The notes: a model not told the origin generated them from the sequence alone. Counted from the first letter of the stretch, positions 19 through 24,598 are shown. The stretch: 51,289 nt of DNA from Kiritimatiellia bacterium (GCA_017646325.1 JAGCMU010000026.1:1-51289), one strand, 5' to 3'. A program made the numbers and translations.

Positions 19-720
19 CTATCCTCTGTTATCTCTTCCCCTTTTTGAAAGTTTTAGGCGAATCAAATCAATAAGCATTCGAGGGGCGTCTTTTAAAACG
101 TTTAATGACGATCTTTTTCCTCCATGCCAAGATACGTTTTGCTCTACAACCTCTCCGCCTTGTTCAATCACCGTAGTAATCAATTCTACATCGAACGCAA
201 AACGCTTAATCATGAGATTCTCAAAAATCGGACGCATTTTTTCGCGATGAAAAAGTTTAAATCCGCATTGAGTATCCATAAGACGATTACCCATAATTAA
301 AGAAGCAAAAAACGAAAAAATCTTTGAAAGTATTTTCCGCTTTATCGGCACCCCTGGACGCCCGCGACGAGATCCGCACACAATCCATACATTATCATCT
401 GCTCTCGAGGCCAAATATTGGAATTGGGATACCGGCACCGATTCATCAACATCGCTCATCAATACCCAATCGCCCTTCGCCTCAAGAAAAGCGTCCCTCA
501 CACTCATCCCTTTACCCATGTTTTTTTCGTGGCGCAATATCTTTACGCCATCTAAATCAACGAGTTTTGGATTTGAGCCGTCATCCACAAAAATACTTTC
601 TATCAATTCAAAGCCACATTCATATGCGACTTCTTTTAAATCTGGCAATCGCAACGACAATTTACGCGCCAAATCCTGCGCATTATAAACGGGAACTATG
701 AACGATAATGTCTTCATCAC
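19..720 (-). CDS. Family 2 glycosyltransferase (polyprenol-phosphate sugar transferase-like)
   Basis: 233-aa ORF. It carries the GT-A/GT2 hallmarks 'FIVPVYNAQD', 'VDDGSNP' and a DxD-type 'SDVDESV'. It overlaps the upstream NUDIX gene by 4 nt, indicating an operon. Confidence 0.75.
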   Translation of the reverse strand: MMKTLSFIVPVYNAQDLARKLSLRLPDLKEVAYECGFELIESIFVDDGSNPKLVDLDGVKILRHEKNMGKGMSVRDAFLEAKGDWVLMSDVDESVPVSQFQYLASRADDNVWIVCGSRRGRPGVPIKRKILSKIFSFFASLIMGNRLMDTQCGFKLFHREKMRPIFENLMIKRFAFDVELITTVIEQGGEVVEQNVSWHGGKRSSLNVLKDAPRMLIDLIRLKLSKRGRDNRG

Positions 721-9371: not shown

Positions 9372-10478
9372 TCAGTTTTTCTTGGAAGGACTTACAACCT
9401 TCATGCCCTTACGTACCTTGTGGGGACCTTGGATAACGATTCTTTCGCCAGGCTTAAGCCCCTTTTCAACGATTAACCAATCGCCCAAAAGATTTCCGCG
9501 GGCAATCGTTCTGCGCGAAGCGATTCCTGCATCATCGATCACCCAAACGTATGGACCTTGAATATCTTGCAAAAGCGATGTGGGCGGAATTGCAGGCATC
9601 AATACGCCTGTGTTTGAAGAGAGAGTAACACTTACGGAAGAACCGATTTTAAGAAGACCTTTTGCGTTTTTGAACTTAACGTACACGCGAACGGTGTCGG
9701 ATCTTTCGTCCGCAACGTTTTCAACGTATTCAATCTGACCTTTTTCCGCATACGGTCTGCCGTCTGAAAGGTTCAATGTAACGAGGGCGTGCTTTTCAAG
9801 GTTTTCCAAGCTTGAATTGAACATCGTGAGGTAATCACGGTTGGAAATCGAAAAAGAAACACGAAGCGGAGAAGTTTGAACGAGAGAAACCAAGATTCCA
9901 GAATTTGGAGTAACGTAGTTTCCTTCCGTAAAAAGCGTCGTGCCGATCTGACCGCTGATAGGAGCCGTAATGCGGCAATGGCGCAAATTATCCTTGGCGA
10001 CAATCAAATCAGCCTCGGCCGCCAGCAATTTTGCCGATGCGCCATCGCGAGCGGAAAGAGCGTTATCTACCGCGTCCAAACTGACGGCACGCGTGGCAAC
10101 AAGCTTTTTGTGACGGGCATAGCTTGATTCTGCATAAGAAAGCTCAACCTTGCAGCTGGTAACTTTCGCTTCGGCATTTTTTACCGCCGCTTCATACTTT
10201 GTGTGGTCAAGAGCATAAAGAAGATCACCCTTCTTGACCGTTGCGCCGTTCTCAAATCCGACATCTATGATTTCGCCGCTAACTTGGGGAATGACATTAA
10301 CTTGGGCGACAGAAACTACGCGTCCAGGATATGTTCTAACTAAAAATTCAGGAACCTCCTGAACCTCTCCGATGGGAAGAGTCAACTGTTCTTGGGCAGC
10401 ATTCCCAACGTGCACGCTTGCCCCAACCAATAAAGCTAAAAGGGGCATGGAAAATTTATTTTTTATTTCGTTATACAT
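9372..10478 (-). CDS. RND efflux periplasmic adaptor (membrane fusion protein)
   Basis: Lipoyl/hairpin/beta-barrel MFP pattern, for example '[10 protein letters not shown]' and '[10 protein letters not shown]'. The track ORF extends to a TTG at 10601. The ATG at 10478 gives a proper signal peptide, '[21 protein letters not shown]'. Confidence 0.85.
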
Positions 10479-10485
10479 AAGTACC

Positions 10486-10494
10486 ATTATATCA
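10486..10494 (-). promoter_or_regulatory. Putative extended -10 (TGaTATAAT) 7 nt upstream of the adaptor ATG
   Basis: The minus strand reads TGATATAAT-GGTACTT-ATG. No Shine-Dalgarno sequence lies between them, which implies a leaderless or near-leaderless mRNA if the element is functional. Confidence 0.3.
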
Positions 10495-10548
10495 AAAAGA
10501 CGGGAAAATGCGAAAGAAAAACATTGTAAATAATTGCAAATAAAAAAA

Positions 10549-10577
10549 TAGACATCTCTCCCCTTTTTTGCTATCAT
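10549..10577 (+). promoter_or_regulatory. Putative sigma70-type promoter (TAGACA-17 nt-TGcTATCAT)
   Basis: TAGACA at 10549-10554 and TATCAT at 10572-10577, with TG at 10569-10570. An AAGGAG RBS at 10604-10609 lies 6 nt before the ATG at 10616. Confidence 0.4.
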
Positions 10578-10615
10578 TTCCACATTCGTGTAACTAACCA
10601 ATTAAGGAGAAAACA

Positions 10616-11509
10616 ATGCAATTAAATCGTCGTTCATTCTTAGGTACGATGGCTGCTGCAGGTGCTTCTTCCATGTTCTCGGGATGCTGCTGCTTCGGCT
10701 GCGCACCTAAGAAAGCGGAAGTAGGCGTTCAGCTTTATTCCATCCGCACATACATCAAAAAGGTCGGCCTTGAAAAAGCTCTCGCCGATGTGGCGAAGAT
10801 TGGCTATAAAGGCGTCCAATTCGCAGGCTACTACGGCTTCAAGGCTGCAGAACTCAAGAAAATGCTTGATGACAACGGCCTCAAGACCGCAGGTACTCAC
10901 GTCGGCCGTGGCGTTTTTGAAAAGGACAACATGGCTAAAACTTGCGAATTCAACCTCGGCTACGGCAACAACGTCATCATTTGCCCAGGCGGCGGCAACA
11001 ACGTTCCAAAGGATTGGTCCAAGCCAAGAGACGATTGGTGGAAATTCCTCGTTGAATTCTACAACGAAGCGGCAGAACGCGCAGCAAAGTACGGCTGCAA
11101 GATTGGTATCCACAACCACACTTGGGAATTTGACCAGAAGCTTTCTGACGGCACGACCGTTTGGGATTACTTCTTCTCCAATACGACAAAGAACGTTCTT
11201 ATGGAACAGGACGTTGGCTGGACGACTTGCGCCGGTTACGATCCATGCGAACAGTACAAGAAGTATCCTGGACGCGCAATCACTCTCCACGCCAAGGAAA
11301 ACGGCATGGGCAAGGGTGTCAAGCAATTTGACGCAATTCTCGGTCAGCCTGGAAAGCCTGGCGCCAAGGGCGTTGACTGGGACAAGCTCTTCCCTGTTTC
11401 TGATGCAGACGGCGTGAAGTGGTATGTCGTTGAATGCGAACGCCATTCCGACAAGCTCTTCGCTATCGAAGAATCCTTCAAGTTCCTCCGTTCGAAAGGA
11501 CGCTGCTAA
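10616..11509 (+). CDS. Xylose-isomerase-like TIM-barrel protein (sugar phosphate isomerase/epimerase family) with Tat signal and lipobox
   Basis: 297-aa ORF. The N-terminus 'MQLNRRSFLGTMAAAGASSMFSGCCCFGC' carries a twin-arginine motif plus an FSG|C lipobox. The body, 'VGVQLYSIR...' and 'IGIHNHTWEF', is typical of the AP-endonuclease-2/XI-like TIM-barrel family. Confidence 0.75.
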   Translation: MQLNRRSFLGTMAAAGASSMFSGCCCFGCAPKKAEVGVQLYSIRTYIKKVGLEKALADVAKIGYKGVQFAGYYGFKAAELKKMLDDNGLKTAGTHVGRGVFEKDNMAKTCEFNLGYGNNVIICPGGGNNVPKDWSKPRDDWWKFLVEFYNEAAERAAKYGCKIGIHNHTWEFDQKLSDGTTVWDYFFSNTTKNVLMEQDVGWTTCAGYDPCEQYKKYPGRAITLHAKENGMGKGVKQFDAILGQPGKPGAKGVDWDKLFPVSDADGVKWYVVECERHSDKLFAIEESFKFLRSKGRC

Positions 11510-11516
11510 AACACCA

Positions 11517-13214
11517 ATGCTCGCGCATCTTTCAGTTTTGAATTTGGCAGTTTTAGAATCTGTCAAAGTTGAATTCAGTGAAGGTTTAAATATCATCACT
11601 GGCGAGACGGGTGCGGGCAAGAGTGTTTTAATGAATGCACTTGCGCTCGTGCTTGGAGCTCGTTCAGATGCGGAGCAGGTTCGTGATGGCGCGCGTGAAG
11701 CGCGCATCGATGCCGTGTTTGATCTTTCAAAAAGGTCAGACACGGCTTCAAAAATTTCATTTTTATTGGAAGACTTAGGTCTTCCCCCTTGTGAAAACGG
11801 AGAGCTTGTTCTCCGCAGATCAATCCTCGCCACAGGCGGAGGACGCGTCTACATCAACGATTCCGCCTCAACCGTGCAAACCCTTAAAAACATAGGGAAA
11901 TTACTCGTAGACAAGCACGGGCCAAGCGATCATCAATCACTTCAAGAAGAATCATTCCAGCGCTCACTTTTAGATTCTTTCGCTGGATTTTCATCTGATT
12001 CTTCATCCATATATTCATCGTACAAGGATGCATGGAATAACCTACATTCTTTACGGATGGAAAAGCAATCCCTTATGGGCGATTCTGTTGATGTGGCAGC
12101 AGAGTGCGAGATGTTGAACGATGCCGTATCCGAATTGGAAAACGCTCACCTTTCAGAGGACGATGAAACAGATCTCGTTGAACGCCACGCAGCAGCTGCA
12201 CACGCTGCTGAAATTTTAGAGAATGCCAATTTTGTTACGTTGGCTCTTACCGGTGATGACGACACTTCAGCATCTACCGCTCTCATAATCGCTTCCAACA
12301 AGATTTCAGAAATGGCGAAGTACCATGCCCCTGCCGAAGATTGGAGCGAAGAAATAGAATCGCTTACCATTCGAGTTCAGGAACTTTCACGAAGCATCGC
12401 AGATTCCGTTTCCCGTATTGATGCCGACCCGGAAGTTCTTCAGGCTCTCGACGAAAGAATTTCTCTTATTCAAAGGCTTAAACGCAAATATGCCCGTCAT
12501 AACATTTGCGATTTGATAACGCTGCTTGAAGAAAAAAAATCACGTCTGCAAACTCTTCTCGATAGAGACATGCTTATTGAACAAATCGACATAAAGATTA
12601 AAGAAGCGGAAAAGGACGTCGAAAAAGCCGGCAAAAACTTATCGGATCTTCGTAGAAGAGCGGCGGAAAAGTTTTCGAAAGCCGTAACGAAAGAACTTCA
12701 CGGCTTAGGATTCCTTAAATCGGACTTCAAAGTCTCCGTCAGCGAAAAGACGCCTGATGCGACGGGATGCGATACAATTGAATTTTTATTTGCTCCAAAC
12801 CCCGGCGAAAGCGAACGTCCGCTAAAGGACATAGCCTCGACGGGCGAAACGGCGCGCGTAATGCTTGCCGTTAAAGCCGTTGCCGCGGAGCACGACTCTA
12901 TCCCTGTTCTCATATTCGATGAAATCGATTCGAACATCGGTGGCGAAGTAGGCAAAGCTGTCGGCGAAAGACTGAGAAGCGTTTCAAAACATCATCAGGT
13001 TATTTCAATTACGCACCTCCCGCAAAGCGCGGTTTACGGGGAAACTCATTTCGTGGTTTCAAAATCCGTTTCCAACGGAAGGACTCATTCAACAGTTGAA
13101 AATATTGAGAATGAAAACCGCATCGCCGAAATCGCGCGTATGCTTGGGGGATCGTCTTTGACGTCTGTTGTCATGCAGCACGCAAAAGAACTCATATCTA
13201 TTGCCCAGAAATAA
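11517..13214 (+). CDS. recN: DNA repair protein RecN
   Basis: The track ORF starts at 11424 inside the upstream gene. The ATG at 11517 gives the canonical N-terminus 'MLAHLSVLNLAVLESV...GETGAGKS' (Walker A). A long coiled-coil middle follows, then the C-terminal 'LIFDEIDSNIGG' (Walker B). Confidence 0.9.
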   Translation: MLAHLSVLNLAVLESVKVEFSEGLNIITGETGAGKSVLMNALALVLGARSDAEQVRDGAREARIDAVFDLSKRSDTASKISFLLEDLGLPPCENGELVLRRSILATGGGRVYINDSASTVQTLKNIGKLLVDKHGPSDHQSLQEESFQRSLLDSFAGFSSDSSSIYSSYKDAWNNLHSLRMEKQSLMGDSVDVAAECEMLNDAVSELENAHLSEDDETDLVERHAAAAHAAEILENANFVTLALTGDDDTSASTALIIASNKISEMAKYHAPAEDWSEEIESLTIRVQELSRSIADSVSRIDADPEVLQALDERISLIQRLKRKYARHNICDLITLLEEKKSRLQTLLDRDMLIEQIDIKIKEAEKDVEKAGKNLSDLRRRAAEKFSKAVTKELHGLGFLKSDFKVSVSEKTPDATGCDTIEFLFAPNPGESERPLKDIASTGETARVMLAVKAVAAEHDSIPVLIFDEIDSNIGGEVGKAVGERLRSVSKHHQVISITHLPQSAVYGETHFVVSKSVSNGRTHSTVENIENENRIAEIARMLGGSSLTSVVMQHAKELISIAQK

Positions 13215-13244
13215 TTTTTTCACATTAACATCAAGGAAATCAAC

Positions 13245-14321
13245 ATGAAAAAACTCATCGCTCTTATTGCACTTTCGCTTTCAGTCATAACAAATGGAGA
13301 AATAAACGTAGAAGAATGGGAAAATGTAAAACGCCCGCAAGTTCTCACGTGGTTCAGAGAACACGTCTACGGGATTGCCCCTATCTCGCGCCCTGGCGAT
13401 ATTGAATTTGGAGAGCGTCACGTTTCAATGGCGGGAGGCAAAATAAAAATCGAAATTTTCCTCGCGCTCCCCAAAGGAGCAAGTGCTGAAAATCCCGTTC
13501 CCGTTTTTATTTTCGGGGATCATAGCAACGTATCAAAAACATTTCCCATCCAAAAACGAATATACGATAACGTCCCGACAAATTCCATCACCGCACGCGG
13601 ATATGCTTATGTGTGCTTTAATTGCAACGATGTCGCGCCCAACACCCATGCCAAAACGCAAGAAATTCCGTGGAATGAAGGTGTCTTCAAGGTTTATGGC
13701 GGAGACGAGCCTAACGCAACAAGCTGGGGCACAATCTCCGCTTGGGCATGGGGCTATTCGCGAGTGATGGACTGGATTGAAACGCGCCCTGAACTCGATG
13801 CAAAACGCGTTGCCGTAGTGGGACATTCGCGCGGCGGGAAGACGGCTCTTTGGGCGGCGGCGCAAGATGAAAGATTTGCGCTCGGCATTTCAAACAACTC
13901 TGGTTGCGGCGGCGCGAAATTAAATAAAATGGATTTGCCGCGAAGTGAACACGCCAAACAAATTCTCACAAACTTCCCGTTTTGGTTCTGCTTGAATTTC
14001 AGAGAATACATCGGCAAGGACGACCAGGTAAAATACGACCAAGACGATTTGATTCGCCTTCTCGCACCGCGTCTTGCATACGTAGCAAGCGCATCGGAAG
14101 ACCCTTGGGCAGGACCGGAAGGCGAATTCGAAGCGGCGCGCCGCGCTTCCGACATTTGGAAAGCGTATGGCAAGAGAGGCCTTTCCCTCACATCTTATCC
14201 AAAACCGGAAACGCAAGATCATAGCGGCCATATCGGATTCCACCTCCGCAAAGGCAAACATAAATTATTGCCGAGCGATTGGAAGCGTTTTATGGACTTT
14301 GCAGACAAGTATATGAAGTAA
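13245..14321 (+). CDS. Secreted alpha/beta-hydrolase, CE15 glucuronoyl-esterase-like
   Basis: 358-aa ORF with a signal peptide. 'WAWGYSRVMDW' and 'VVGHSRGGKTALWAAAQDERF' resemble the bacterial CE15 nucleophile block G-x-S-R-x-G-K. A C-terminal 'KGKHKLLPSDW' block is also present. Confidence 0.6.
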   Translation: MKKLIALIALSLSVITNGEINVEEWENVKRPQVLTWFREHVYGIAPISRPGDIEFGERHVSMAGGKIKIEIFLALPKGASAENPVPVFIFGDHSNVSKTFPIQKRIYDNVPTNSITARGYAYVCFNCNDVAPNTHAKTQEIPWNEGVFKVYGGDEPNATSWGTISAWAWGYSRVMDWIETRPELDAKRVAVVGHSRGGKTALWAAAQDERFALGISNNSGCGGAKLNKMDLPRSEHAKQILTNFPFWFCLNFREYIGKDDQVKYDQDDLIRLLAPRLAYVASASEDPWAGPEGEFEAARRASDIWKAYGKRGLSLTSYPKPETQDHSGHIGFHLRKGKHKLLPSDWKRFMDFADKYMK

Positions 14322-14322
14322 T

Positions 14323-14883
14323 ATGAAACTTTTCGTAGCATCACACAACGCTCACAAATTACGTGAGATAGGCGAGATTCTGCCTGGATTTGAAATAATC
14401 GCAGAAGACTCTGGAGTAGAGGAAACAGGTACGACTTTTGCTGAAAACGCATTCATCAAAGTTGAAGCCATTTCCGAAAAACACAAGGGCGAATGGTGTA
14501 TGGCGGACGATTCAGGCCTTGAAGTTTCCGCCCTTAATGGCGAGCCGGGCGTTTATAGCGCCCGTTATGCGGGCGAACCTTGCAACACGCCGAGAAACAA
14601 TGCGCTTCTCTTAAAAAACATGGAAGGGATAAAAGACAGGTCTGCTCAATTCACCTGCGCAATCGCCTTGATTGACCCTGACGGCAAAAAGCACCTCGCC
14701 GTGGGGCACTCTAAAGGGCAAATCGCATTGTCTGAATCGGGAAGCGCAGGTTTTGGCTATGACCCCCTTTTCATTCCTGACGGATACGCTCTTTCATTTG
14801 CCGATCTTTCCGCAGATGAGAAAAACGCAATATCACACAGAGGCAGAGCACTTGCCGAAGTACGTAAAATTATGGTAAAATAA
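14323..14883 (+). CDS. rdgB: Non-canonical purine NTP pyrophosphatase (RdgB/HAM1 family)
   Basis: 186-aa ORF with 'FVASHNAHKLRE', 'FGYDPLFIP' and 'ISHRGRAL'. Confidence 0.85.
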   Translation: MKLFVASHNAHKLREIGEILPGFEIIAEDSGVEETGTTFAENAFIKVEAISEKHKGEWCMADDSGLEVSALNGEPGVYSARYAGEPCNTPRNNALLLKNMEGIKDRSAQFTCAIALIDPDGKKHLAVGHSKGQIALSESGSAGFGYDPLFIPDGYALSFADLSADEKNAISHRGRALAEVRKIMVK

Positions 14884-14888
14884 TAGAC

Positions 14889-15152
14889 ATGCAACGCGAA
14901 GAATTAGAACAAAAAATCAAGGAAATTGTCGTTTCCTCTCTTGATCTCGAAGACATCACGATTGAAGATATTGAAACCGATGTACCGCTTTTCGGAGAAG
15001 GCCTCGGTCTTGATTCCATTGATGCCCTTGAACTTGGAATGGCAATTAGAAAGAACTTTAACATAACCTTTTCATCCGACAAAGCTGAAAACAAGAAAAT
15101 TTTCTATTCAGTAAAAACGCTTGCGGATTATGTGGAGACTCAAACAGCATGA
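14889..15152 (+). CDS. Acyl carrier protein (dedicated, cluster-associated)
   Basis: 87-aa acidic ORF with the phosphopantetheine attachment motif 'GLDSIDALEL'. Confidence 0.8.
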   Translation: MQREELEQKIKEIVVSSLDLEDITIEDIETDVPLFGEGLGLDSIDALELGMAIRKNFNITFSSDKAENKKIFYSVKTLADYVETQTA

Positions 15153-15397
15153 CTAACGCAGAAATCGAAACATTAGTTAAGGAAATTTTAGTTGACCGTT
15201 TTGAATGCGACATAGACGCATTAAAGCCGGAAACGAATCTTTTTACCGAGCTTGACCTCGACTCCATCGACGCCGTCGATTTGGTCGTTTTGCTTCAGAA
15301 GAAAACCGGCAAAAAAATCAATCCGGAAGACTTCCGTACGATTCGTACTCTTAATGATGTAGTGAATGCCATTTCCAAACTGATCAACGAAGGTTGA
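15149..15397 (+). CDS. Acyl carrier protein (second, divergent copy)
   Basis: 82-aa acidic ORF with 'DLDSIDAVDL'. It overlaps the first ACP gene by 4 nt (ATGA). Confidence 0.8.
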   Translation: MTNAEIETLVKEILVDRFECDIDALKPETNLFTELDLDSIDAVDLVVLLQKKTGKKINPEDFRTIRTLNDVVNAISKLINEG

Positions 15398-15404
15398 AAC
15401 ACTC

Positions 15405-17093
15405 GTGTTTCAGAAGTATAGAAAATATTTTTCGTTAATAACTTTAGCGGCGTGCGTAAGCGCCGCTATTGTTTTCAAGCGTTTCGTTTTTGTCGCATAC
15501 TATCCCGTACTGATGAGTGCGGTCGTAGCATTCGCATTCGGCTCATCTCTTTTCCGAAAAGTATCCTTGTGCGAGTCGCTTGCCCTATCAACGCCTCCCT
15601 TTTTGCTGCCTGACAATGCCCGAGGATATTGCCGCAAATTAACTGCTATCTGGTGCGGCATCATGATTCTCAACGGATGTATCGCGACTGCCACCGTTTT
15701 TGCTCCGAAATGGGTTTGGATTCTTTGGAATTGCGCCCTTTCCTACTGCATGACCTTAACGGTTGTAGGGATTGAACTTTTGGTGCGCAGGAAGAAATTC
15801 TCCGTTGTTTTCACCACGTCCGGATCGACATCCACGCCTAAGCGAATAGTAAAACCGTTTTCAAAACTCGCAAAAGAAGTCTTGTACCATAAAAAGCAAT
15901 TGCGAGACATTCTCTCGTCAAAGCCTGTATTTCTCGCGACCATCGAGGAACACCACATGTACGGCACTCTTTGGTGCAAGTTGCTTCCAAAGGCGGCGGA
16001 ATGTGAAATTGACAAGGAAGTCATCTTCACACCCGAAGCGTTGATAGAAAAAATGAAATCGCACAGGGAAGTCATTCTCATTACGACGCCGACATTCCTC
16101 TCCCGCTTTACAGCCTACGCGAAACAATACGACATTCCTAAAAACGTCAAGGAAATCATCACGTCTGGAGCACTTCTCACATCTGAAGTTTCCAAAGCGA
16201 CAAAAGATGTTTTCGGCATTGCTCCACGCGAAATTTTTGGCAGCACGGAAACTGGTGGTGTTGCCTCCCGCAGACAACACTCCGGCGAAGGCGAAGACTG
16301 GAAGGTTTTCGACTCGGTAAAAATCTCTTCGTCTCCCGAAGGAAATCTCATCGTAAATTCGCCGTTTTCAATTGAAAAAAATTATACAATGGGAGACGGC
16401 GTAATCATCGCCCCCGACGGACGTTCTTTCAAATTATTGGGACGCACAGATCGTATGGTAAAAATTTCAGAAGAGAGAGTAAGCCTTCCTGAAATGGAAG
16501 AAAAGATGGTAAAAATTTCCGGCATCAAAGAAGTTGCCCTTTGCCCGCTGACGAATGAACACGGGCCTTATTTAGGTGCTGTTATCGTGGCGGAGGAAGA
16601 ACTCGCCTCTCAAGAAAAGCCTTCAATGTTCATACGCAACGAATGTCTAAAGATTTTCCCGAAAGGCACAGCTCCTAAAAAATATAGGTTCGTTCCTGAA
16701 TTGCCTCGCAACGCCCAAGGGAAAATCCAAGTAAGCGCCTTAAAGGAAGTTCTCAATTCTTCCTTTAGAATGCCTCTCGTTTTCGATAGCCAAATTACAG
16801 AAAACTCCTTTACCGCCAATATGGTATTCCCTTCTGACATGCCTTGCTTTAAAGGTCATTTCAACGGCTATCCAGTCCTTGCAGGTGTTGTTCAGGTGGG
16901 AGTTGCAAACAATATCGCCCAGCAGTTTTTCAAATGCTCCTCGCCTATGAAAACCCTGAAAAAGATAAAGTTTACGGGCGTCATCACACCTGGGAAAAAG
17001 ATTGCGTTTTCTTTGACGCAAAAATCGCAAGATTTCACTTTCTCATATTCTAAAGGAGAATCTCAATGTTCAAGCGGTATTTTATCTTATTGA
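15405..17093 (+). CDS. Fusion protein: polytopic membrane N-terminus + adenylate-forming (ANL) enzyme core + FabA/FabZ-like hotdog domain
   Basis: 562-aa ORF with a GTG start. Residues 1-130 contain about 4 hydrophobic helices. ANL motifs are 'TSGSTSTPK' (aa 138-146), 'FGSTETGG', 'GRTDRMVKISEERV' and 'PRNAQGKI'. The C-terminal ~110 aa carry 'CFKGHFNGYPVLAGV'. Confidence 0.7.
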   Translation: MFQKYRKYFSLITLAACVSAAIVFKRFVFVAYYPVLMSAVVAFAFGSSLFRKVSLCESLALSTPPFLLPDNARGYCRKLTAIWCGIMILNGCIATATVFAPKWVWILWNCALSYCMTLTVVGIELLVRRKKFSVVFTTSGSTSTPKRIVKPFSKLAKEVLYHKKQLRDILSSKPVFLATIEEHHMYGTLWCKLLPKAAECEIDKEVIFTPEALIEKMKSHREVILITTPTFLSRFTAYAKQYDIPKNVKEIITSGALLTSEVSKATKDVFGIAPREIFGSTETGGVASRRQHSGEGEDWKVFDSVKISSSPEGNLIVNSPFSIEKNYTMGDGVIIAPDGRSFKLLGRTDRMVKISEERVSLPEMEEKMVKISGIKEVALCPLTNEHGPYLGAVIVAEEELASQEKPSMFIRNECLKIFPKGTAPKKYRFVPELPRNAQGKIQVSALKEVLNSSFRMPLVFDSQITENSFTANMVFPSDMPCFKGHFNGYPVLAGVVQVGVANNIAQQFFKCSSPMKTLKKIKFTGVITPGKKIAFSLTQKSQDFTFSYSKGESQCSSGILSY

Positions 17094-17605
17094 TTTCTTC
17101 AGTTTCCATAAGTCTCAACGCCCTTACGATTGAGGAATTGGCTGACAGATTCAATAAGAGCGGAGATGATACGGGTACGTTCATCCAAATGAAAACCCTT
17201 TCAGATATTGGAGTAACTCTCACGTCTACCGGCACTTATGAGTTCAAAAAAAACAAATACGTGAAATGGACGACTCTCAAGCCCTTGCAAAGCGATTTTA
17301 TAGCCACGCAAAAAGACTATACTTCCGTGGTGAACGGCAAGAGCGTAAAGCGTAAACTCGCCGACTTGAAAATGTCAAAAAGCATGAAATCTCTCGTAGA
17401 GGGAGATCTTTCGTCTTTAAAAGACACTTTCTCTTTAAAGATCAAGAAAAATTCCATCATTGCCCATCCAAAGCAACGCGAGCTAAAAGAATTTATCGAT
17501 AACTTCGTTCTTGAGTTTAACGACGCCTATCAGCCCACCAGATTTATTATGACATTTTCAAACTCTGATGTATTGGACATCGTGTTAAAACGCTCCTCGA
17601 AATGA
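17066..17605 (+). CDS. LolA-like outer-membrane lipoprotein/lipid carrier protein (cluster-associated)
   Basis: 179-aa ORF with an AAAGGAG RBS and the signal peptide 'MFKRYFILLISSVSISLNA'. The size, a beta-rich pattern ('FIQMKTLS...STGTYEFKKNKYVKWTTLKP') and the position between adenylase and exporter match LolA-like proteins of aryl-polyene-type loci. Confidence 0.5.
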   Translation: MFKRYFILLISSVSISLNALTIEELADRFNKSGDDTGTFIQMKTLSDIGVTLTSTGTYEFKKNKYVKWTTLKPLQSDFIATQKDYTSVVNGKSVKRKLADLKMSKSMKSLVEGDLSSLKDTFSLKIKKNSIIAHPKQRELKEFIDNFVLEFNDAYQPTRFIMTFSNSDVLDIVLKRSSK

Positions 17606-20600
17606 AAAATCCGCTTACGTATTTAAGAATCGCCTTCTTATCGTTTTTCACAATATGCCTTATCGCCCTTTTATTCTCTATTTCAAAGGGTGTTGAAACC
17701 GATATATTTTCTATTCTCAATTCACACGACTCTTCGCTTTTGTCAACGTTAACCAAGAACTCGGCCTCCACCATGAACATCCTTTGCGAAGGGGTGGATA
17801 AAAACAAGGTCGTTGATTTTGCAAAAAAGTACAATTCAAAAAAAGGTTCACGCCCGACATTAAAAGACACTCTAAAGGTCATTTCCAACCACAAAGACGG
17901 CCTTCTTTCCTGTGAGGCAAGATCTCAAATAGAAAGAGGAGAAACGGCTCAAATAAAAGACGCTGCAATTTCTCAATTATTCGGTTTTTCGCCAAATCTT
18001 TTTTCTGTAAAAAAAGACCCTTACTTTCTTGCGACTTCATACGTTTTAAATCTCCAATCGAACAACACATCCGGATGGAACATTGAAGACGGGCTTTTAA
18101 TCAACACTGACGGAACAAACCATTTCGCCCTCGTCTCTCTCGACAAATCATCGCTGAATCCTTTAAAAATACTCCACGAAATACACGGCGACAACTCATC
18201 GCAAAGAGACGTAAAAATATGGGCGGGCGGAGCGCCGTTTCACGCAGCCGTTTCCGAATTTTCCGCAAAAAAAGAAATAAACGTTCTCTCATTTTTTTCC
18301 GTTGCGATATGCCTGATACTTGGCATAATATTGCTTCGCTCCTTAAAATTCATTCCCTTTCTCATCGTTGCGCTATGTATTTCATTCATTATTGCGACAT
18401 CGCTCGTTTTCATATTTTTTGAAAAGCCTCACATCTTGACTCTCGTTTTCGGAACGTCGTTAATTGGTCTATCGGTCGATTACACGTATCACGCCTTCTC
18501 CATGGCCCGAAATAAAAACATCTCCAGTGTCCAGCTTGCCTTGGCAAAACCTCTTACATGCGCATTGATTACGACATGCACTTGTTTCTCCCCTCTGCTT
18601 TTCGCTTCAATTGGAATATTGCAGCAAATGGCAGTATTTACCATTGCCGGTCTCGTATCCATGTATTCGTGCGTCATGTTATGCGGGCACATCATTTCCA
18701 TCAAGTCTGCAATTGAAGAAGAGTATACTCAAACTGATTTCCCTTTCTTCTTTAAAGCCGCATTAATACTCGTTTTCATCGTATCGTCATTCGGTATCTT
18801 AAAACTCAAAACAGGTAACGATCTTTCAAAAATTTACGTCCCCGTAAAATTTCTCGCAGAAAGCGAAAGACGCATTTTACAATGCGGACACTCTGAAAAC
18901 TCGCGCTTTACCGTCATAAAAGCTTCTTCTGTTCAAGAGGCTCTCGAAAAAGAAGAATCCTGCAACATTCAAGGACTCTCTTCCATCGTCCCGTCGTTGA
19001 AGAAGCAGAAAGAAAACGCAAAACTCATTGAAAAATTATACGAGAAAGAATCTGAAAACTTTTCAAAATCGACGAACATAAAAATACAAATTTCCGACAA
19101 AAACAACCTCTCTTTTTTGGAGCCAAAACACCTTGAAAACACTTTAGTTGCCGACTTGATTAAACGAGCCTTAATCAAAACAGATAAAGCGGTTTACTTG
19201 GTTTCCCCCTACTCTCCTTCAACACCTTTCTCTATCGACATCCAAATTGTTGAACCAAGAAAAATTCTTACAGATCTTTTTGACGCTTGTTCAAAAGAAA
19301 CATTCACCCTTTTATGTTTTTCATTTGCAATTCTCCTCTGCTTCCTTGCCATAAGTTTTAGAAAGAAGCTTTTTTCCTATCTCCTTCCATCACTCCTTGC
19401 GTCCATCGCGACAGCGGGATTGCTTGGATATTTAAATGAAACAATAAACTTTTTCCATGTCCTATGTTTCTTCATTTTCGTGGGTTTAGGTTTAGATTAT
19501 ACGATTTTCCATCTCTCTAACCCCTCACGGCAAATGAAGAAAACAGTCTTCTTTTCTTTCCTTACAAGTCTTACGGGGCTTGGAATGCTTGCGTTCACAT
19601 CCTTTAGCGTCACCCGTTCAATGGGAATAACGCTGTCTATCGGGCTTTTCTTCGCGTACTTGTTTTCAAGTATTCCGGCAATCAAGGGGAAAGAAAACTT
19701 TTCGTCATCTCCATGGTATAAGCAAAAAGAGCAGTCCGCCGGAAAAATAAGACTATTAACGATGTGGTACATCTATAAATTTCTCGGCAAAAACATAATG
19801 AAAGCAGTATGTGTTCCTGTGATGCTTTTTATTTACCCTTTTGCCCGCCCCGCAAAAGAAGCCATCAAAAAATACAGCAAAATATTAAACGATTTTTCAA
19901 AAGAAAAGAAATATCCGCAAACATTCTTTTCAATGTTTAAACACCTGTTGGGTTTTGCCCTGTCAATGGCTGACAAAACAGACGCTTGCACGCTTGCAAA
20001 AAACCTGCCTGAAATAAACATCCCTCAATCAGACGACTCTAAGGAATTTTTAGAATTGATCGATTCAGGCAAAGGCGTGATGGTGATTTCTTCACACATC
20101 GGAACGATTGAAGTTTTCCCTGCCGCGCGAGGCCTTACAAAGAGAGATCCTCACGTCCACGCGTTCAAACAATTAGGGCACAACGCGATTTATACGGATA
20201 TTCTGTCGTCGTATATGGACTCTTCAAAACTGACTGTCCATCCAGTTGAAGATATCGGCGTTGAAACGGCCTCGATAATGAAAGACAATATAACAAACGG
20301 CGATATCGTCATCATGGCGGGCGACAGAATATCCGCCACGAATCCTAACGCTGTTTTAAAGGAACGGTTTTTGAACTGCGATTGCCTATTCCCCAAAGGC
20401 GTTTTTGTTTTCGCCAAATTGATGGAAGCGCCTATCTTCTTTATAACATGCGTATCTACTTCATGGGACGCGTACGAAATTCACATATCAAAACATAAAG
20501 GCGAATTGAAGCCAAAAGAAATTCTCGCAAGCTACGTAAAATTCCTTCAGAAAGAAGCTCTCGCCCACCCGTTGCAGTGGTTCCACTTCCACGACTTTTT

Positions 20601-20625
20601 CAAATCTCAATTACAGGAAAAATGA
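17602..20625 (+). CDS. Fusion protein: MMPL/RND-superfamily 'predicted exporter' + C-terminal LpxL/HtrB-type lipid acyltransferase
   Basis: 1007-aa ORF. Two blocks of about 5-6 TM helices are each preceded by a soluble loop (aa 1-690). The C-terminal ~300 aa carry the acyltransferase HX4E motif 'SSHIGTIEVF' (H at aa 832, nt 20095) and 'IVIMAGDR'. Confidence 0.7.
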   Translation: MKNPLTYLRIAFLSFFTICLIALLFSISKGVETDIFSILNSHDSSLLSTLTKNSASTMNILCEGVDKNKVVDFAKKYNSKKGSRPTLKDTLKVISNHKDGLLSCEARSQIERGETAQIKDAAISQLFGFSPNLFSVKKDPYFLATSYVLNLQSNNTSGWNIEDGLLINTDGTNHFALVSLDKSSLNPLKILHEIHGDNSSQRDVKIWAGGAPFHAAVSEFSAKKEINVLSFFSVAICLILGIILLRSLKFIPFLIVALCISFIIATSLVFIFFEKPHILTLVFGTSLIGLSVDYTYHAFSMARNKNISSVQLALAKPLTCALITTCTCFSPLLFASIGILQQMAVFTIAGLVSMYSCVMLCGHIISIKSAIEEEYTQTDFPFFFKAALILVFIVSSFGILKLKTGNDLSKIYVPVKFLAESERRILQCGHSENSRFTVIKASSVQEALEKEESCNIQGLSSIVPSLKKQKENAKLIEKLYEKESENFSKSTNIKIQISDKNNLSFLEPKHLENTLVADLIKRALIKTDKAVYLVSPYSPSTPFSIDIQIVEPRKILTDLFDACSKETFTLLCFSFAILLCFLAISFRKKLFSYLLPSLLASIATAGLLGYLNETINFFHVLCFFIFVGLGLDYTIFHLSNPSRQMKKTVFFSFLTSLTGLGMLAFTSFSVTRSMGITLSIGLFFAYLFSSIPAIKGKENFSSSPWYKQKEQSAGKIRLLTMWYIYKFLGKNIMKAVCVPVMLFIYPFARPAKEAIKKYSKILNDFSKEKKYPQTFFSMFKHLLGFALSMADKTDACTLAKNLPEINIPQSDDSKEFLELIDSGKGVMVISSHIGTIEVFPAARGLTKRDPHVHAFKQLGHNAIYTDILSSYMDSSKLTVHPVEDIGVETASIMKDNITNGDIVIMAGDRISATNPNAVLKERFLNCDCLFPKGVFVFAKLMEAPIFFITCVSTSWDAYEIHISKHKGELKPKEILASYVKFLQKEALAHPLQWFHFHDFFKSQLQEK

Positions 20626-21216
20626 TGCGAGAGCGCCAAACAAAAGCCCCCACAACGGAGAAATATTTTTTGAAAAAGTAATTAGCGTACTTACGACGAG
20701 AATTACGATTGAAACGGCGTTAATATCGAAATTTTTGACTGCATAAATGCTTTCCGAGCCAAAACATTGCAATATCAAAAGTACCCCCGTCGCCGAAACA
20801 AATCCCGCCACTAAAGGACGCAAGACTTCAAACACGGATTTTACCCATGGATTGTTCTTGTTTTTCTCAAACCATCCGCCTGCGAAATGAACAGCGATAA
20901 CGCTTGGCAGCATTATCGCGACATTAGCGACAACGGCGACGAACAAACAACTCCAAATATCCATCCCTTGAAGCGACGGCACCCGATATCCGACAAAAGT
21001 TGCAGTATTCATCCCCATGGGACCGGGAGTCGCCTGTGCAATTCCGATAATATCCAAGAATTGCGTCGTTGTAAGCCAATTATGCTTCTCCATTTCCTGT
21101 TGTATGAGAGGCATGATCACAAGCCCGCCGCCAAGTGTAAACAATCCTATCTTAAAGAAGGAAGTAAAAATCGCAATTATAAGATTTAACACGATTCCTC
21201 CTTCCGCTTTTTCCAA
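20611..21216 (-). CDS. chrA: Chromate transporter (CHR) family, short-chain half
   Basis: 201-aa hydrophobic ORF with 'FKIGLFTLGGGLVIMPLIQQE'. It is paired with a second half-gene upstream. Confidence 0.8.
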   Translation of the reverse strand: MEKAEGGIVLNLIIAIFTSFFKIGLFTLGGGLVIMPLIQQEMEKHNWLTTTQFLDIIGIAQATPGPMGMNTATFVGYRVPSLQGMDIWSCLFVAVVANVAIMLPSVIAVHFAGGWFEKNKNNPWVKSVFEVLRPLVAGFVSATGVLLILQCFGSESIYAVKNFDINAVSIVILVVSTLITFSKNISPLWGLLFGALASFFL

Positions 21217-21788
21217 ATGTTAACCGAATTTAAAATAAGCCCCAAAAGCACAGTTGATAAAATCATCCAAACAATGGGAGGGTTCAAGAACAGCACTATC
21301 GCGCATACCGTCAAAGAAAACATACAAGCCCAACGCTTTTTAGATTCCTTTACAAGCATCTTCAAACCCATTGCAAAAATCATCCCTGCAGCCGCCGGGC
21401 GTACTCCATCAAGTATTTTCATAACGACTTCCACATTGTTCATCGTTGAATACGTTATGGCGTAAATGACTATCAAAATGAACGGGACGAAAACAAGCCC
21501 CAACGCTGCAATTAAATTACCTGCAAGCCCCCTCAGGCGATTCCCCACCAACATAGCGGTATTTACGGCAATCACACCTGGCAACAATTGCGCAAGCGCA
21601 TACAAGTCGGTCATTTCCTCCGACTTTGCCCACTTGTGTTTTACCGTTATTTCGTTTTCAAGCAACGGCAAAAGAGCATACCCACCGCCAATAAGCACTG
21701 CTCCCATTTTCAAAAAGGAAAGAAAAAGATCCCAGAGAGGAACCTTTTTCTCTTCTTCATTTTGCAAAGTGTTATCGTTTAACGCCAT
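21186..21788 (-). CDS. chrA: Chromate transporter (CHR) family, short-chain half
   Basis: 200-aa hydrophobic ORF with 'FLKMGAVLIGGGYALLPLLENE'. It overlaps its partner half by 31 nt. Confidence 0.8.
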   Translation of the reverse strand: MALNDNTLQNEEEKKVPLWDLFLSFLKMGAVLIGGGYALLPLLENEITVKHKWAKSEEMTDLYALAQLLPGVIAVNTAMLVGNRLRGLAGNLIAALGLVFVPFILIVIYAITYSTMNNVEVVMKILDGVRPAAAGMIFAMGLKMLVKESKKRWACMFSLTVCAIVLFLNPPIVWMILSTVLLGLILNSVNIWKKRKEESC

Positions 21789-21806
21789 TGCAATTCTCGA
21801 AAACCG

Positions 21807-22532
21807 TTACTTTGCCGCCTCGTTCATTTCAGCAATAGTGACACGACCGTCGTACAACGCCTTGCCGACAATCGCCGCGCGCAAATTAGGCTTACCGAGA
21901 GCTTTTAAATTGATAACATCCTTTACTGACGAAACGCCGCCTGATGCCGTAATATCACACGTTGGAGCGGCATCGCAAATCGCCGCCATTTGTACGAGAT
22001 TCGGCCCGCCAAGCATTCCGTCGGTCGCAGTATCAGTGTAGATAATGGATTTAACGCCCATTGATGCAACTTTTGCGGCAAGATCGGTCGCTTTCACATC
22101 AGTCGTCGTTACCCATCCGCGCGTTTGCACAAAGCCGTCGCGGGCATCGATTCCGACAGTTATTTTTTCTCCCCACTTTTCAATCGCGGCGGCGAGAAAA
22201 TCTGGATTTTCAAGTGCGGCAGAGCCGATGATGGCACGAGTTGCCCCGGCATTTATAACAGCTTCAATCGCTTCCATGGAGCGGAGCCCACCACCCACTT
22301 CAACAGGTCCGCCAAAACCCTCGATAATTTTTGCGATGATTTCCGCGTGTTTGGGAGTCCCTGCAAAAGCGCCGTCCAAATCTACGACATGAAGTTCCTC
22401 GCCGCCTTGTTCACGCCAATCGCGCGCTTGTGAATAAGGGTCGGGGTTGTACGTCGTAACATCATCTGCACGACCTTGCCTGAGGCGGACACATACGCCG
22501 CCTTTTAAATCAATTGCTGGAAGAATAACCAT
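21807..22532 (-). CDS. hisA: ProFAR isomerase (1-(5-phosphoribosyl)-5-[(5-phosphoribosylamino)methylideneamino]imidazole-4-carboxamide isomerase)
   Basis: 241-aa ORF with 'ILPAIDLKGGVCVRLRQG', 'HVVDLDGA' and 'ASGGVSS'. Confidence 0.9.
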   Translation of the reverse strand: MVILPAIDLKGGVCVRLRQGRADDVTTYNPDPYSQARDWREQGGEELHVVDLDGAFAGTPKHAEIIAKIIEGFGGPVEVGGGLRSMEAIEAVINAGATRAIIGSAALENPDFLAAAIEKWGEKITVGIDARDGFVQTRGWVTTTDVKATDLAAKVASMGVKSIIYTDTATDGMLGGPNLVQMAAICDAAPTCDITASGGVSSVKDVINLKALGKPNLRAAIVGKALYDGRVTIAEMNEAAK

Positions 22533-23740: not shown

Positions 23741-24598
23741 CTACCTTCTTCTAGCTTTCTTCTTTTGAGAATCATACCAGGCTTTTTCACCTTGTATTGC
23801 TTCGGGATCCTTTAATAATTTTGAAAAATCATCTTTATACCTATCCTTCTCCGACGGCCATGTTGTAACGAGCCAACGGATATCTCTAAGTAAAATACCT
23901 TTATCGGCACAATCTCCTGCCGCTTTTTCCTCTTCGATTTCTTCTTCAAGATTTTTCTTCGCTTTTTCTATTGCATCGATAATAGCTTGAGCCTCTGCGC
24001 GTTCAGCGGCCTTTTTACTTTTGAGCGCGGCTTTCACCGGCGAGAGCAATGCTCCTTCCACCTTCTTGCCCATTGCGATTTTATTTTTGAGAGAGCGGAA
24101 TTTTTTCAACGAAACGCCTGAAATCAAATCACCTGGGATAGGCATATCGGTAATCGCATTAACTACAGCCGTAATCGCCTCGTTCTTATCGTGACCTGAA
24201 TAAATCACTTTACCCGACGTATCGACAACGTACATGAACGGCACTTTTCCGCTTTGCGGAGCGGATGTATATTCAACTCCCTGGTAAACAGGACACGTCA
24301 ATGAATTGGCGGCAATTGACGCTTTAACCTTCGCATCATCCTTCACGCCTTTATGCGAAGCTATCAAAACGAACGGATGTGACGAGTACCCACGATAACA
24401 TTTTTCCACAAAACCCATCGTTTCCGAAGCGTCAACAGACGAATCCCACTCTTCAACCATAATGATTTTGCGGCGCAAATCTTTAAGAGACAATTTCTTC
24501 CCCGAATACCAATTTGCGTCGTCAAGCCCCTTCCATTCGCCGGCAAAGGAAATAGAGAGAGAGCAAATCGACAGAAAGGATAAAATGATTTTTCTCAC
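23741..24598 (-). CDS. Secreted hypothetical protein, thioredoxin-fold-like N-domain without CxxC plus charged helical C-domain
   Basis: 285-aa ORF with the signal peptide 'MRKIILSFLSICSLSISFA'. 'IIMVEEWDSSVDAS' sits where TlpA/ResA-type proteins carry WCxxC. The C-terminal half is Lys/Glu-rich and helical. It overlaps the upstream vWA gene by 4 nt. Confidence 0.45.
   Translation of the reverse strand: MRKIILSFLSICSLSISFAGEWKGLDDANWYSGKKLSLKDLRRKIIMVEEWDSSVDASETMGFVEKCYRGYSSHPFVLIASHKGVKDDAKVKASIAANSLTCPVYQGVEYTSAPQSGKVPFMYVVDTSGKVIYSGHDKNEAITAVVNAITDMPIPGDLISGVSLKKFRSLKNKIAMGKKVEGALLSPVKAALKSKKAAERAEAQAIIDAIEKAKKNLEEEIEEEKAAGDCADKGILLRDIRWLVTTWPSEKDRYKDDFSKLLKDPEAIQGEKAWYDSQKKKARRR

Follow-up and report, generated by a model that had tools for sequence, protein, structure and literature searches.

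A putative loading, attachment and export module of a probably split aryl polyene pathway in host-associated Kiritimatiellia

Introduction

The closest described relatives of the system studied here are the aryl polyene (ape) gene clusters of Escherichia coli CFT073 and Xenorhabdus doucetiae (apeA-R), which combine an aryl starter bound to an acyl carrier protein (ACP), acyl transfer to a lipid, and export by an RND pump with a LolA-like protein. ApeH loads 4-hydroxybenzoate, and in vitro also p-coumarate, selectively onto ApeE, with ApeF as the malonyl carrier (PMC12624758). ApeI and ApeP pair up as a dehydratase, a heterodimer that has one active site only, and fusions of ApeH with ApeI have been described (PMC8041823). 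ApeJ has been proposed to add N-acetylgalactosamine to a lipid and then to acylate the sugar hydroxyl with the ApeE-bound chromophore, and ApeD to place a second, ApeF-derived acyl chain (bioRxiv 10.1101/2020.12.19.423268). How the products are attached and exported (ApeG, ApeJ, ApeL, ApeM) has so far been understood by inference only. Here we describe a five-gene cassette at positions 14889-20625 of a 51,289-bp window, by which we mean the whole stretch of DNA analysed, from an uncultured Kiritimatiellae/Kiritimatiellia metagenome-assembled genome (MAG; GCA_017646325.1, JAGCMU010000026.1, a complete contig; NCBI proteins MBO7166114-MBO7166121 and locus tag J6V88_01175 lie on it).

Compared with the E. 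coli and X. doucetiae clusters, the cassette shares ApeE, ApeF, ApeG, ApeH, ApeI, ApeL, ApeM and the acyltransferase (AT) half of ApeJ, in the common order E-F-G-H-I...L-M. Unlike them, it has no ApeO/ApeR, ApeC, ApeQ, ApeP, ApeD, ApeK, ApeB, ApeA, ApeN or GT2 half of ApeJ, its G, H and I are fused, its M is fused to the C-terminal part of J, and its ApeH core lacks the N-terminal ~130 aa. A closer likeness was found with full clusters of other Kiritimatiellia (L056, L057, L061, L063, L065, L067 and L069) and with two loci carrying one ketosynthase (KS; L059 and L060). These have the same short ApeG with four transmembrane (TM) helices abutting a truncated ApeH-ApeI and the same ApeM-ApeJ(C) fusion, and GT2 and thioesterase (TE) genes are likewise absent. 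The full clusters continue with O-P-Q-R-C-D, and L059 and L060 with O alone, whereas the cassette ends at M-J; in all of these loci G and HI are separate overlapping genes, whereas here G is fused to HI, with 33-38% identity in the ApeH core. The Acinetobacter baumannii cluster (PMC8041823) also has its adenylase fused to the ApeI hotdog protomer, but that fusion has no membrane domain and the cluster encodes ApeP, KS, chain-length factor (CLF) and ketoreductase (KR).

Results

As shown in Table 1, the cassette consists of five open reading frames (ORFs) on the plus strand, most of which overlap. The tight coupling claimed by the original prediction, which had been made from the sequence alone, was found at every junction: neighbouring ORFs overlap by 4 nt at 15149 and 17602 and by 28 nt at 17066, the 28-nt overlap being found in one relative as well, and a gap of 7 nt precedes 15405. 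All the motifs it had quoted are present in the translations. The 18 proteins of the E. coli CFT073 apeA-R locus served as the reference, and the comparison supported the proposed homology to the loading and export genes of ape, flexirubin and xanthomonadin loci. In family scans, the two PP-binding domains, the AMP-binding domain and the MMPL domain scored above their cutoffs, whereas the ApeI-like/FabA, LolA and Lip_A_acyltrans matches stayed sub-threshold, the hotdog and AT assignments being backed by profiles. Structure prediction gave clear domain boundaries in both fusion proteins.

Table 1. Coordinates of the cassette genes and domains, of neighbouring window features, and of related genes in other loci
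Feature	Sequence	Coordinates	Strand	Size or residues	Evidence or remark
ApeE-like starter ACP (ACP1)	window	14889-15152	+	87 aa	PF00550 4e-9; NCBIfam PRK09184 94 bits, above cutoff
ApeF-like extender (malonyl) ACP (ACP2)	window	15149-15397	+	82 aa	PF00550 1e-13; PRK05350 109 bits, above cutoff
ApeG-ApeH-ApeI fusion gene	window	15405-17093	+	562 aa	GTG start
ApeG-like membrane domain	window	15405-15797	+	aa 1-131	four TM helices; E. coli ApeG residues 59-186, 1e-15
ApeH-type adenylate-forming (ANL) core	window	15801-16769	+	aa 133-455	PF00501 5e-14; ApeH 7e-35
ApeI-like hotdog domain	window	16776-17090	+	aa 458-562	PF22818 1e-3, FabA 5e-3, both sub-threshold
ApeL/LolA-like periplasmic lipid chaperone (putative)	window	17066-17605	+	179 aa	signal peptide-like N-terminus; E. 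coli ApeL 2e-8, syntenic
ApeM-ApeJ(C) fusion gene	window	17602-20625	+	1007 aa	
ApeM-type RND/MMPL exporter body	window	17602-19683	+	aa 1-694	PF03176 3e-7, 30 bits vs cutoff 20.5
ApeJ-C-type (LpxL/LpxM-fold) AT domain	window	19735-20622	+	aa 712-1007	ApeJ residues 246-557, 4e-23
rdgB (Ham1-family nucleoside triphosphate pyrophosphatase)	window	14323-14883	+		5 nt between stop end (14883) and ACP1 ATG (14889)
CE15-type glucuronyl esterase	window	13245-14321	+		signal peptide; ends 1 nt 5' of rdgB start codon
ChrA, half-size, first gene	window	20611-21216	-		
ChrA, half-size, second gene	window	21186-21788	-		
GT2 gene	window	19-720			only GT2 gene in the window
ORF	window	34440-36770	-	776 aa	no Pfam match at E <= 0.001
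ORF	window	23741-24598	-	285 aa	no Pfam match at E <= 0.001
rdgB homolog	L005	8892-9446			
rdgB homolog	L006	3280-3837			
rdgB homolog	L007	8899-9456			
rdgB homolog	L010	8680-9231			
H-I gene, group B	L056	2983-4296			truncated ANL core
E-F-G-HI-L-MJ-O	L059	9388-16250			
E-F-G-HI-L-MJ-O	L060	1149-7996			
WaaA-lipoprotein-KS-ApeP unit	L134	6982-11525			
WaaA-lipoprotein-KS-ApeP unit	L116	2897-7449			
WaaA-lipoprotein-KS-ApeP unit	L179	6961-11513			
WaaA-lipoprotein-KS-ApeP unit	L180	3068-7620			
Orphan KS alone	L145	9884-10972			
Orphan KS alone	L177	10001-11089			
Orphan KS alone	L178	4637-5725			
Stand-alone ApeP	L091	10001-11274			
Stand-alone ApeP	L093	10001-10444			
Stand-alone ApeP	L095	10001-10477			
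rdgB homolog fused to UbiA-like prenyltransferase domain	L179	1170-2522		450 aa	
Short-chain dehydrogenase (SDR)	L012	9756-10508			
SDR	L179	16605-17390			

The first two genes encode dedicated ACPs. ACP1 is 46% identical to E. coli ApeE (3e-28) and carries GLDSIDALEL, with the Ser in GLDS, and a Gly-rich GEG, motifs conserved across the groups of loci described below. ACP2 is 56% identical to E. coli ApeF (1e-28) and carries DLDSIDAVDL. Between species, the ACPs are 70-80% identical.

The 562-aa protein joins ApeG-, ApeH- and ApeI-like segments in the order of the E. coli genes. Its N-terminal domain (residues 2-130 in BLASTP) matched the C-terminal part of E. coli ApeG and no Pfam family. 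In the AlphaFold model (pLDDT 83), TM helices at 2-23, 27-48, 72-98 and 104-131 lead straight into the P-loop strand of the ANL core (133-455), which is followed by the hotdog domain (458-561). The ANL core scored 52 bits with PF00501 (cutoff 29.9) and aligned with E. coli ApeH over aa 138-453; its best ligase-family match was the 4-coumarate ligase model TIGR02372, at 106 bits and below cutoff. The translation contains TSGSTSTPK (the P-loop), FGSTETGG, GRTDRMVKISEERV and PRNAQGKI, and the P-loop, GSTETG, GRxDxxxK (here GRTDRMVK) and the A10 Lys K440 are invariant among 19 homologs. Foldseek placed the core with MatB, benzoate-CoA ligase and 4-chlorobenzoyl-CoA ligase (E ~1e-20, ~350/500 residues aligned). 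The core starts at the P-loop, without the usual N-terminal subdomain of ~130 aa (E. coli ApeH residues 1-138), and the H-I genes of complete Kiritimatiellia clusters, such as that of L056, show the identical truncation. The short four-TM ApeG-like segment stands in place of the missing subdomain, fused to the core here and encoded by a separate overlapping gene in group B.

The hotdog domain aligned with E. coli ApeI over aa 482-550 (1e-6) and contains CFKGHFNGYPVLAGV. A profile built from 19 homologs matched PDB 3ESI (5.5e-14) and the X. doucetiae ApeI chain of 6QSR (1.5e-9). The catalytic His H485 (GHF) is invariant, and in an alignment with E. coli FabZ, ApeI and ApeP there is no acidic residue at the Glu position of the FabZ motif (L)ILEAMAQ; of the complete FabZ/FabA-type active site, only the His is present. 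In the same alignment, ApeI-type domains have the His (GHF) and no Glu, and ApeP-type domains have no His and carry the Glu within (L)E(L/Y)MAQ. On these motifs, the ApeI-like domain is predicted to be the His-donating half of a heterodimeric dehydratase, the Glu of which would come from ApeP.

The 179-aa protein gave three sub-threshold matches, to LolA (PF03548, 4e-4), LolA2_flexi (6e-9) and TIGR00547 (4e-7), and its N-terminus ...SLNALTIEELADRF resembles ...VSALTLDDLQQRF of ApeL. No ApeN was found among the export parts of the cassette in the comparison with the E. coli Ape proteins. The exporter body of the 1007-aa protein aligned with ApeM over aa 96-691 (9e-26) and with the HpnN model TIGR03480 (2e-10). 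A single-sequence search of PDB with the 1007-aa protein was nearly empty, and profiles were used instead: the exporter profile matched HpnN (5KHN, 5e-16), and Foldseek retrieved HpnN, MmpL3, MmpL4 and MmpL5 at ~1e-14, several of the matched MmpL structures having been solved with the ACP AcpM bound; in the MmpL4/5 structures it is docked on the cytoplasmic face. The modelled exporter shares with HpnN and MmpL3-5 the RND fold of 12 TM helices, the two periplasmic domains and the charged proton relay in TM4/TM10, which is formed by paired Asp-Tyr motifs, here D293-Y294 and D632-Y633, invariant in its homologs. Unlike them, it belongs to the ape/xanthomonadin branch and has an AT covalently fused.

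The original prediction had called this AT ApeD. It matched instead the C-terminal half of E. coli ApeJ, over residues 701-1007 of the 1007-aa protein, and showed no similarity to ApeD, a PlsC-type PF01553 enzyme, in the comparison with the E. coli Ape proteins. Lip_A_acyltrans was sub-threshold, at 0.027 for the whole protein and at 0.0016 (PF03279, 18.2 bits against a gathering cutoff of 22.3) for the domain alone; 9 of 14 homologous AT domains matched PF03279, the best at 1.2e-7. Acyl-ACP-dependent chemistry is expected of the LpxL/LpxM family. The AT profile matched A. baumannii LpxM (5KN7, 1.6e-5), with the HX4E in register ("SSHIGTIE" against the catalytic "PHFGTWE"); H832 of the HIGTIE motif is invariant and E837 is conserved in at least 90% of homologs. 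The domain thus shares the fold family and the HX4(D/E) dyad of the LPLAT superfamily with LpxL/LpxM and PatA, whereas it belongs to the ApeJ-C subfamily and is fused to an RND exporter; by analogy with APE lipids, its acceptor is probably not lipid A but a sugar hydroxyl. In the AlphaFold model (pLDDT 81), the RND body (1-694) is followed by a low-confidence disordered linker (695-711) and an alpha/beta domain (712-1002). The AT domain sits at the cytoplasmic C-terminus of the exporter.

The absence of a chain-building half held up. Neither the Pfam scan, which assigned 30 further window ORFs to housekeeping or carbohydrate-active functions and among them no KS, KR, CLF or TE, nor tblastn of the 18 E. 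coli Ape proteins (no KS, CLF, KR, ApeP, ApeD or TE) nor a tblastn search using O, P, Q, R, C and D proteins of the Kiritimatiellia type found such a gene in the window, and no methyltransferase (MT) was found either. No glycosyltransferase gene lies in the locus, where no GT2 half of ApeJ is found, and the one GT2 gene of the window is 14 kb from the cassette. In the 35 KS-less loci described below, no polyketide synthase (PKS) core lies within 10 kb of the cassette, and ~400 kb of flanks contained no KS, KR or ApeP, also with Kiritimatiellia-type queries. The locus has the tandem ApeE/ApeF-type ACPs, an ApeH-type ligase by homology and motifs, the ApeM/ApeL export pair and the ApeJ AT half of an ape cluster; ApeO/ApeR, ApeC, ApeQ and a complete ApeI/ApeP pair are missing from it, as are ApeD and the GT2 half among the attachment enzymes. 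Because the PKS core, ApeP, ApeD and the GT2 half of ApeJ are lacking, we do not file it as a complete ape biosynthetic gene cluster (BGC). By sequence comparison, the system appears to be ape-type in descent and in function, and the locus is probably the loading, attachment and export module of a streamlined, split ape variant.

A scan using one genome per GTDB species gave 80 best hits in 80 different assemblies, which were annotated against the Ape references. The KS-less cassette recurred across genomes, in 35 loci (33 from the species scan, that is, 33 species genomes) from one clade of host-associated Kiritimatiellia. This group A comprises A1, E-F-[GHI]-L-[MJ], the window type, with ~10 complete loci; A2, E-F-HI(-L-M); and A3, E-H only. 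Group B (E-F-G-HI-(L)-[MJ]-O-P-Q-R-C-D) occurs in other Kiritimatiellia, group C (R-Q-P-O divergent from C-D-E-F-G-HI-J(GT)-K-L-M-J(AT)) in rumen Alphaproteobacteria and one Kiritimatiellia, and group D comprises classical clusters of other phyla. In the neighbour-joining tree of ApeH cores, which, like those of ApeO and ApeP, has no support values, the KS-less loci form one clade with A2 and A3 nested inside, group C as sister and group B next. Among the 80 best hits, none of the cassette-bearing genomes was represented by more than one ApeH-type locus.

The cassette corresponds to the 5' block of the group-B full cluster (E-F-G-HI-L-MJ, then O-P-Q-R-C-D) and shares with group B the short G, the truncated H, the M-J fusion and the absence of GT2 and TE. 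The two intermediates, L059 and L060, stop after E-F-G-HI-L-MJ-O: the next 5.3 kb add no other part of the cluster, P, Q, R, C and D included. It appears that the ape cluster has been repeatedly eroded or dispersed in the class. Other reduced B-type loci (L058, L062 and L066) carry E-F-G-HI only, or HI and a J-like gene.

In more than 30 species the ORFs are intact, with 45-64% identity, and the family is common in metagenomes, where it forms more than 120 clusters at 90% identity. In A1 loci the constraint on ApeF relative to the ApeH core matched that of full clusters (1.26 against 1.28-1.30); in A2 the ratio was 1.14. The ApeI/ApeH-core ratio was 0.81-0.85 in KS-less loci and 0.94-0.98 in full clusters, slightly relaxed, with the motif kept. 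Judged from these ratios, the ApeF-like ACP and the ApeI-like domain are under purifying selection. ApeF and ApeI are lost together, and only in the E-H forms.

Candidates for the missing partners were sought with an ApeP profile, with context look-ups, and with a metagenome scan using a group-B ApeO profile. The ApeP search returned complete group-C clusters and stand-alone ApeP genes on Kiritimatiellia contigs. The latter are surrounded by housekeeping genes, and after one of them comes a gene for an ApeD-like PlsC acyltransferase. As missing partners, the stand-alone genes P0339, P0370 and P0376 were rejected: the ApeP tree places them within group B, and they probably serve the reduced B-type loci. 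The ApeO scan returned mostly classical clusters of other phyla, together with a distinct orphan set. In L134, L116, L123 and L179/L180, an ApeO-like KS and ApeP form an overlapping unit with WaaA, a Kdo transferase (WaaA-TPR), and a 229-aa lipoprotein without known family. As a CLF or ApeN, the 229-aa protein was rejected, the similarity being limited to its lipoprotein signal peptide. In L145, L177 and L178, an orphan ApeO-like KS stands alone, flanked by gyrB and a kinase gene of the APH family. It is common in gut metagenomes: the 90% cluster to which it belongs counts 104 members, and their contigs reach 271 kb. The start of the L145 contig had been considered as the end of an ApeM gene, which would have put cassette and KS on one contig; it proved to be a phosphoribosyltransferase C-terminus.

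The orphan KS keep the Cys-His-His triad and the orphan ApeP keep the Glu. Within 10 kb of any orphan there is no ACP, ApeH, exporter, KR or CLF. In the ApeO and ApeP trees the orphans branch as a separate deep lineage next to groups B and C, a position like that which the KS-less clade takes in the ApeH tree. Their neighbours also point to relatives of cassette-bearing genomes: HtpG of the orphan loci is 86-96% identical to the gene right after E-H in L032, WaaA is 65-89% identical to that in L025, and another neighbour is 71% identical to the gene that immediately follows the cassette of L035 and L016. The original prediction had pointed to a possible ape-type KS and KR set elsewhere in the genome; KS and dehydratase genes were found, in related genomes only, and no KR or CLF.

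Two further observations concern L179. Its rdgB homolog, 7.5 kb upstream of the orphan KS-ApeP unit, carries a UbiA-like prenyltransferase domain as a fusion. An SDR gene directly after the cassette in L012 encodes a protein 75% identical to an SDR of L179, ~5 kb from the KS-ApeP pair, which may be a candidate ketoreductase or a coincidence.

The flanking genes of the cassette were as predicted, rdgB upstream and a convergent ChrA gene downstream. In the window and four other A1 loci, 5 in all, rdgB lies directly upstream, the four homologs (L005, L006, L007, L010) being 62-69% identical and 9-16 nt 5' of the cassette. Since rdgB is a conserved immediate neighbour across a 5-nt intergenic gap, the 5' end of the operon is uncertain, and rdgB is possibly co-transcribed with the cassette. 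A promoter and terminator scan of 10400-22000 stayed at chance level and did not define the operon ends. The CE15 esterase gene upstream of rdgB is not kept in related loci, and in L001 LpxK lies upstream of the cassette. Downstream are two tandem half-size chromate-transporter genes, the first of which shares 15 nt with the 3' end of the gene for the 1007-aa protein. GC content is 0.40-0.42 across the cassette (16001-21000) and 0.45-0.47 in the flanks; that of the whole window (0.45) is far below that of most related KS-less loci (0.60-0.71). Two minus-strand ORFs matched no Pfam family (Table 1).

Discussion

We propose, at about even odds, that the cassette belongs to a streamlined, Kiritimatiellia-specific ape pathway that is split between unlinked loci and is not ketosynthase-free. 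The membrane-anchored ApeG-ApeH-ApeI fusion would adenylate a carboxylic acid, most likely an aromatic one such as 4-hydroxybenzoate or p-coumarate, and load it straight onto the ApeE-like ACP with no coenzyme A intermediate. The ApeF-like ACP would hold malonyl extender units loaded by the housekeeping FabD, and the ApeI-like domain would give the catalytic His of a two-subunit dehydratase. The partners acting in trans would be an ApeP-like subunit donating the Glu, an ApeO-like KS, and type II fatty acid synthase enzymes (FabD, FabG). The LpxL/LpxM-type domain on the cytoplasmic tail of the pump would then take the finished acyl-ACP and esterify the hydroxyl of an inner-membrane (glyco)lipid, and the proton-driven pump and the LolA-like chaperone may carry the product to the outer membrane. 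Such a pathway would be pared down, doing without CLF, ApeR, ApeQ, ApeD, GT2, TE and MT.

The split is the most economical account because the loci are complementarily incomplete, occur in related genomes and match in phylogenetic depth. In group C, moreover, R-Q-P-O lies divergently beside C-D-E-F..., and a single breakpoint could have separated the halves. Several observations weigh against a split pathway. No contig or assembly was found with both a KS-less cassette and an orphan KS/ApeP, our view of the J6V88 MAG being its 51,289-bp window alone. The orphan contigs best match A2 and A3 relatives, and their matches to A1 are weak (40-52% to L054, plus rdgB). In L179 no cassette follows rdgB, and L177 has no E-H pair upstream of HtpG, unlike L032; with these sites empty, both genomes may lack the cassette at its expected position. 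The ApeH tree puts the KS-less clade beside group C, whereas its architecture resembles group B. No KR, CLF or ApeR lies beside either half, and to form a polyene the pathway would have to rely on FabG and on a KS that works without a CLF. Finally, the aromatic substrate is a prediction, and the ligase's best family match, TIGR02372, is below cutoff.

The original prediction of a self-contained module was that a ready-made carboxylic acid is activated, loaded on ACPs, esterified to a membrane lipid and exported by the five genes alone, KS-independently. The substrate could be a hydroxycinnamate or hydroxybenzoate from the diet, compounds that abound in rumen and gut, and the ApeI-like domain and ApeF-like ACP would have taken on new roles. 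We regard this as possible but doubtful. It would fit the lack of KS, KR and ApeP in the window and in the flanks of the 35 loci, the single ApeH-type locus per cassette genome among the 80 best hits of the scan, the in vitro loading by ApeH of p-coumaric acid, an already unsaturated aryl acid (PMC12624758), and the nesting of the E-F-HI-L-M and E-H forms in the clade, which suggests progressive loss of elongation functions; the CE15 glucuronyl esterase just upstream is suggestive only. Yet the extender ACP and a half-dehydratase are kept under purifying selection and jointly lost only in E-H forms, and self-containment is doubtful because an extender ACP and half an active site are retained and neither is decaying. 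The ApeI domain by itself has no catalytic Glu, and the functional-looking orphan ApeO-ApeP pairs of close relatives need ACPs and a starter-loading enzyme. The operon is thus probably not self-sufficient. A specific form of the same idea, which we consider unlikely, is that plant phenolic acids (p-coumarate, ferulate) are scavenged, loaded on the ACP and ester-linked to an outer-membrane glycolipid by the exporter-fused acyltransferase. An antioxidant 'aryl-ene' lipid would thus be made with no polyketide synthesis at all, and the orphan KS-ApeP pairs would have their place in another process, one associated with lipopolysaccharide.

It is still less probable that the cassette serves Aas-like fatty-acid salvage, in which ordinary or 3-hydroxy fatty acids would be put onto ACPs, lipid A or a glycolipid acylated and the product exported, with no aromatic chemistry. 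LpxM, a lipid A acyltransferase, is indeed the nearest solved relative of the AT domain, the ligase has weak NCBIfam matches to acyl-ACP synthetase/acyltransferase (Aas-type) models, the orphan KS-ApeP pairs adjoin WaaA, and LpxK precedes the cassette in L001. But each component is closest to its ape counterpart: the best family of the ligase is of the 4-coumarate/aryl-acid type, with benzoate and 4-chlorobenzoate ligases among its structural neighbours, the ACPs are specifically of the ApeE and ApeF types above NCBIfam cutoffs, and in the ApeH tree bona fide ape clusters surround the KS-less clade. That the locus is a non-functional remnant of a decaying ape cluster seems highly improbable. 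The gene sets do shrink, from E-F-GHI-L-MJ over E-F-HI-L-M to E-H, and the ANL core has no N-terminal subdomain, but the complete Kiritimatiellia clusters share that truncation; all catalytic motifs are invariant in the intact, widely conserved ORFs, and neither the high identity of the ACPs across species nor the abundance of the family in metagenomes would be expected of a remnant.

The cassette contains what may be read as natural "Rosetta-stone" fusions. That ApeG shares one polypeptide with the starter ligase and the half-dehydratase suggests that it works with loading and elongation at the membrane, not in energising transport, and the fusion of the final acyltransferase to the RND pump suggests that acylation and export are physically coupled. 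The ApeH-ApeI fusion was already known (PMC8041823), whereas the G-H-I triple fusion, the M-J(AT) fusion, the KS-less arrangement and a product of the cassette were not found in the searchable literature. Within Kiritimatiellia, a series runs from the full cluster through the one-KS form to the KS-less cassette with orphan KS-dehydratase pairs. Rule-based BGC detectors keyed on ape ketosynthases probably miss or mis-bound such systems in abundant uncultured gut and rumen bacteria. The compact five-gene unit would also be a handy construct for probing the loading and export half alone. The main value of the system lies in the fusions and the reduction series, which shed light on that half of a very common pathway which is understood least.

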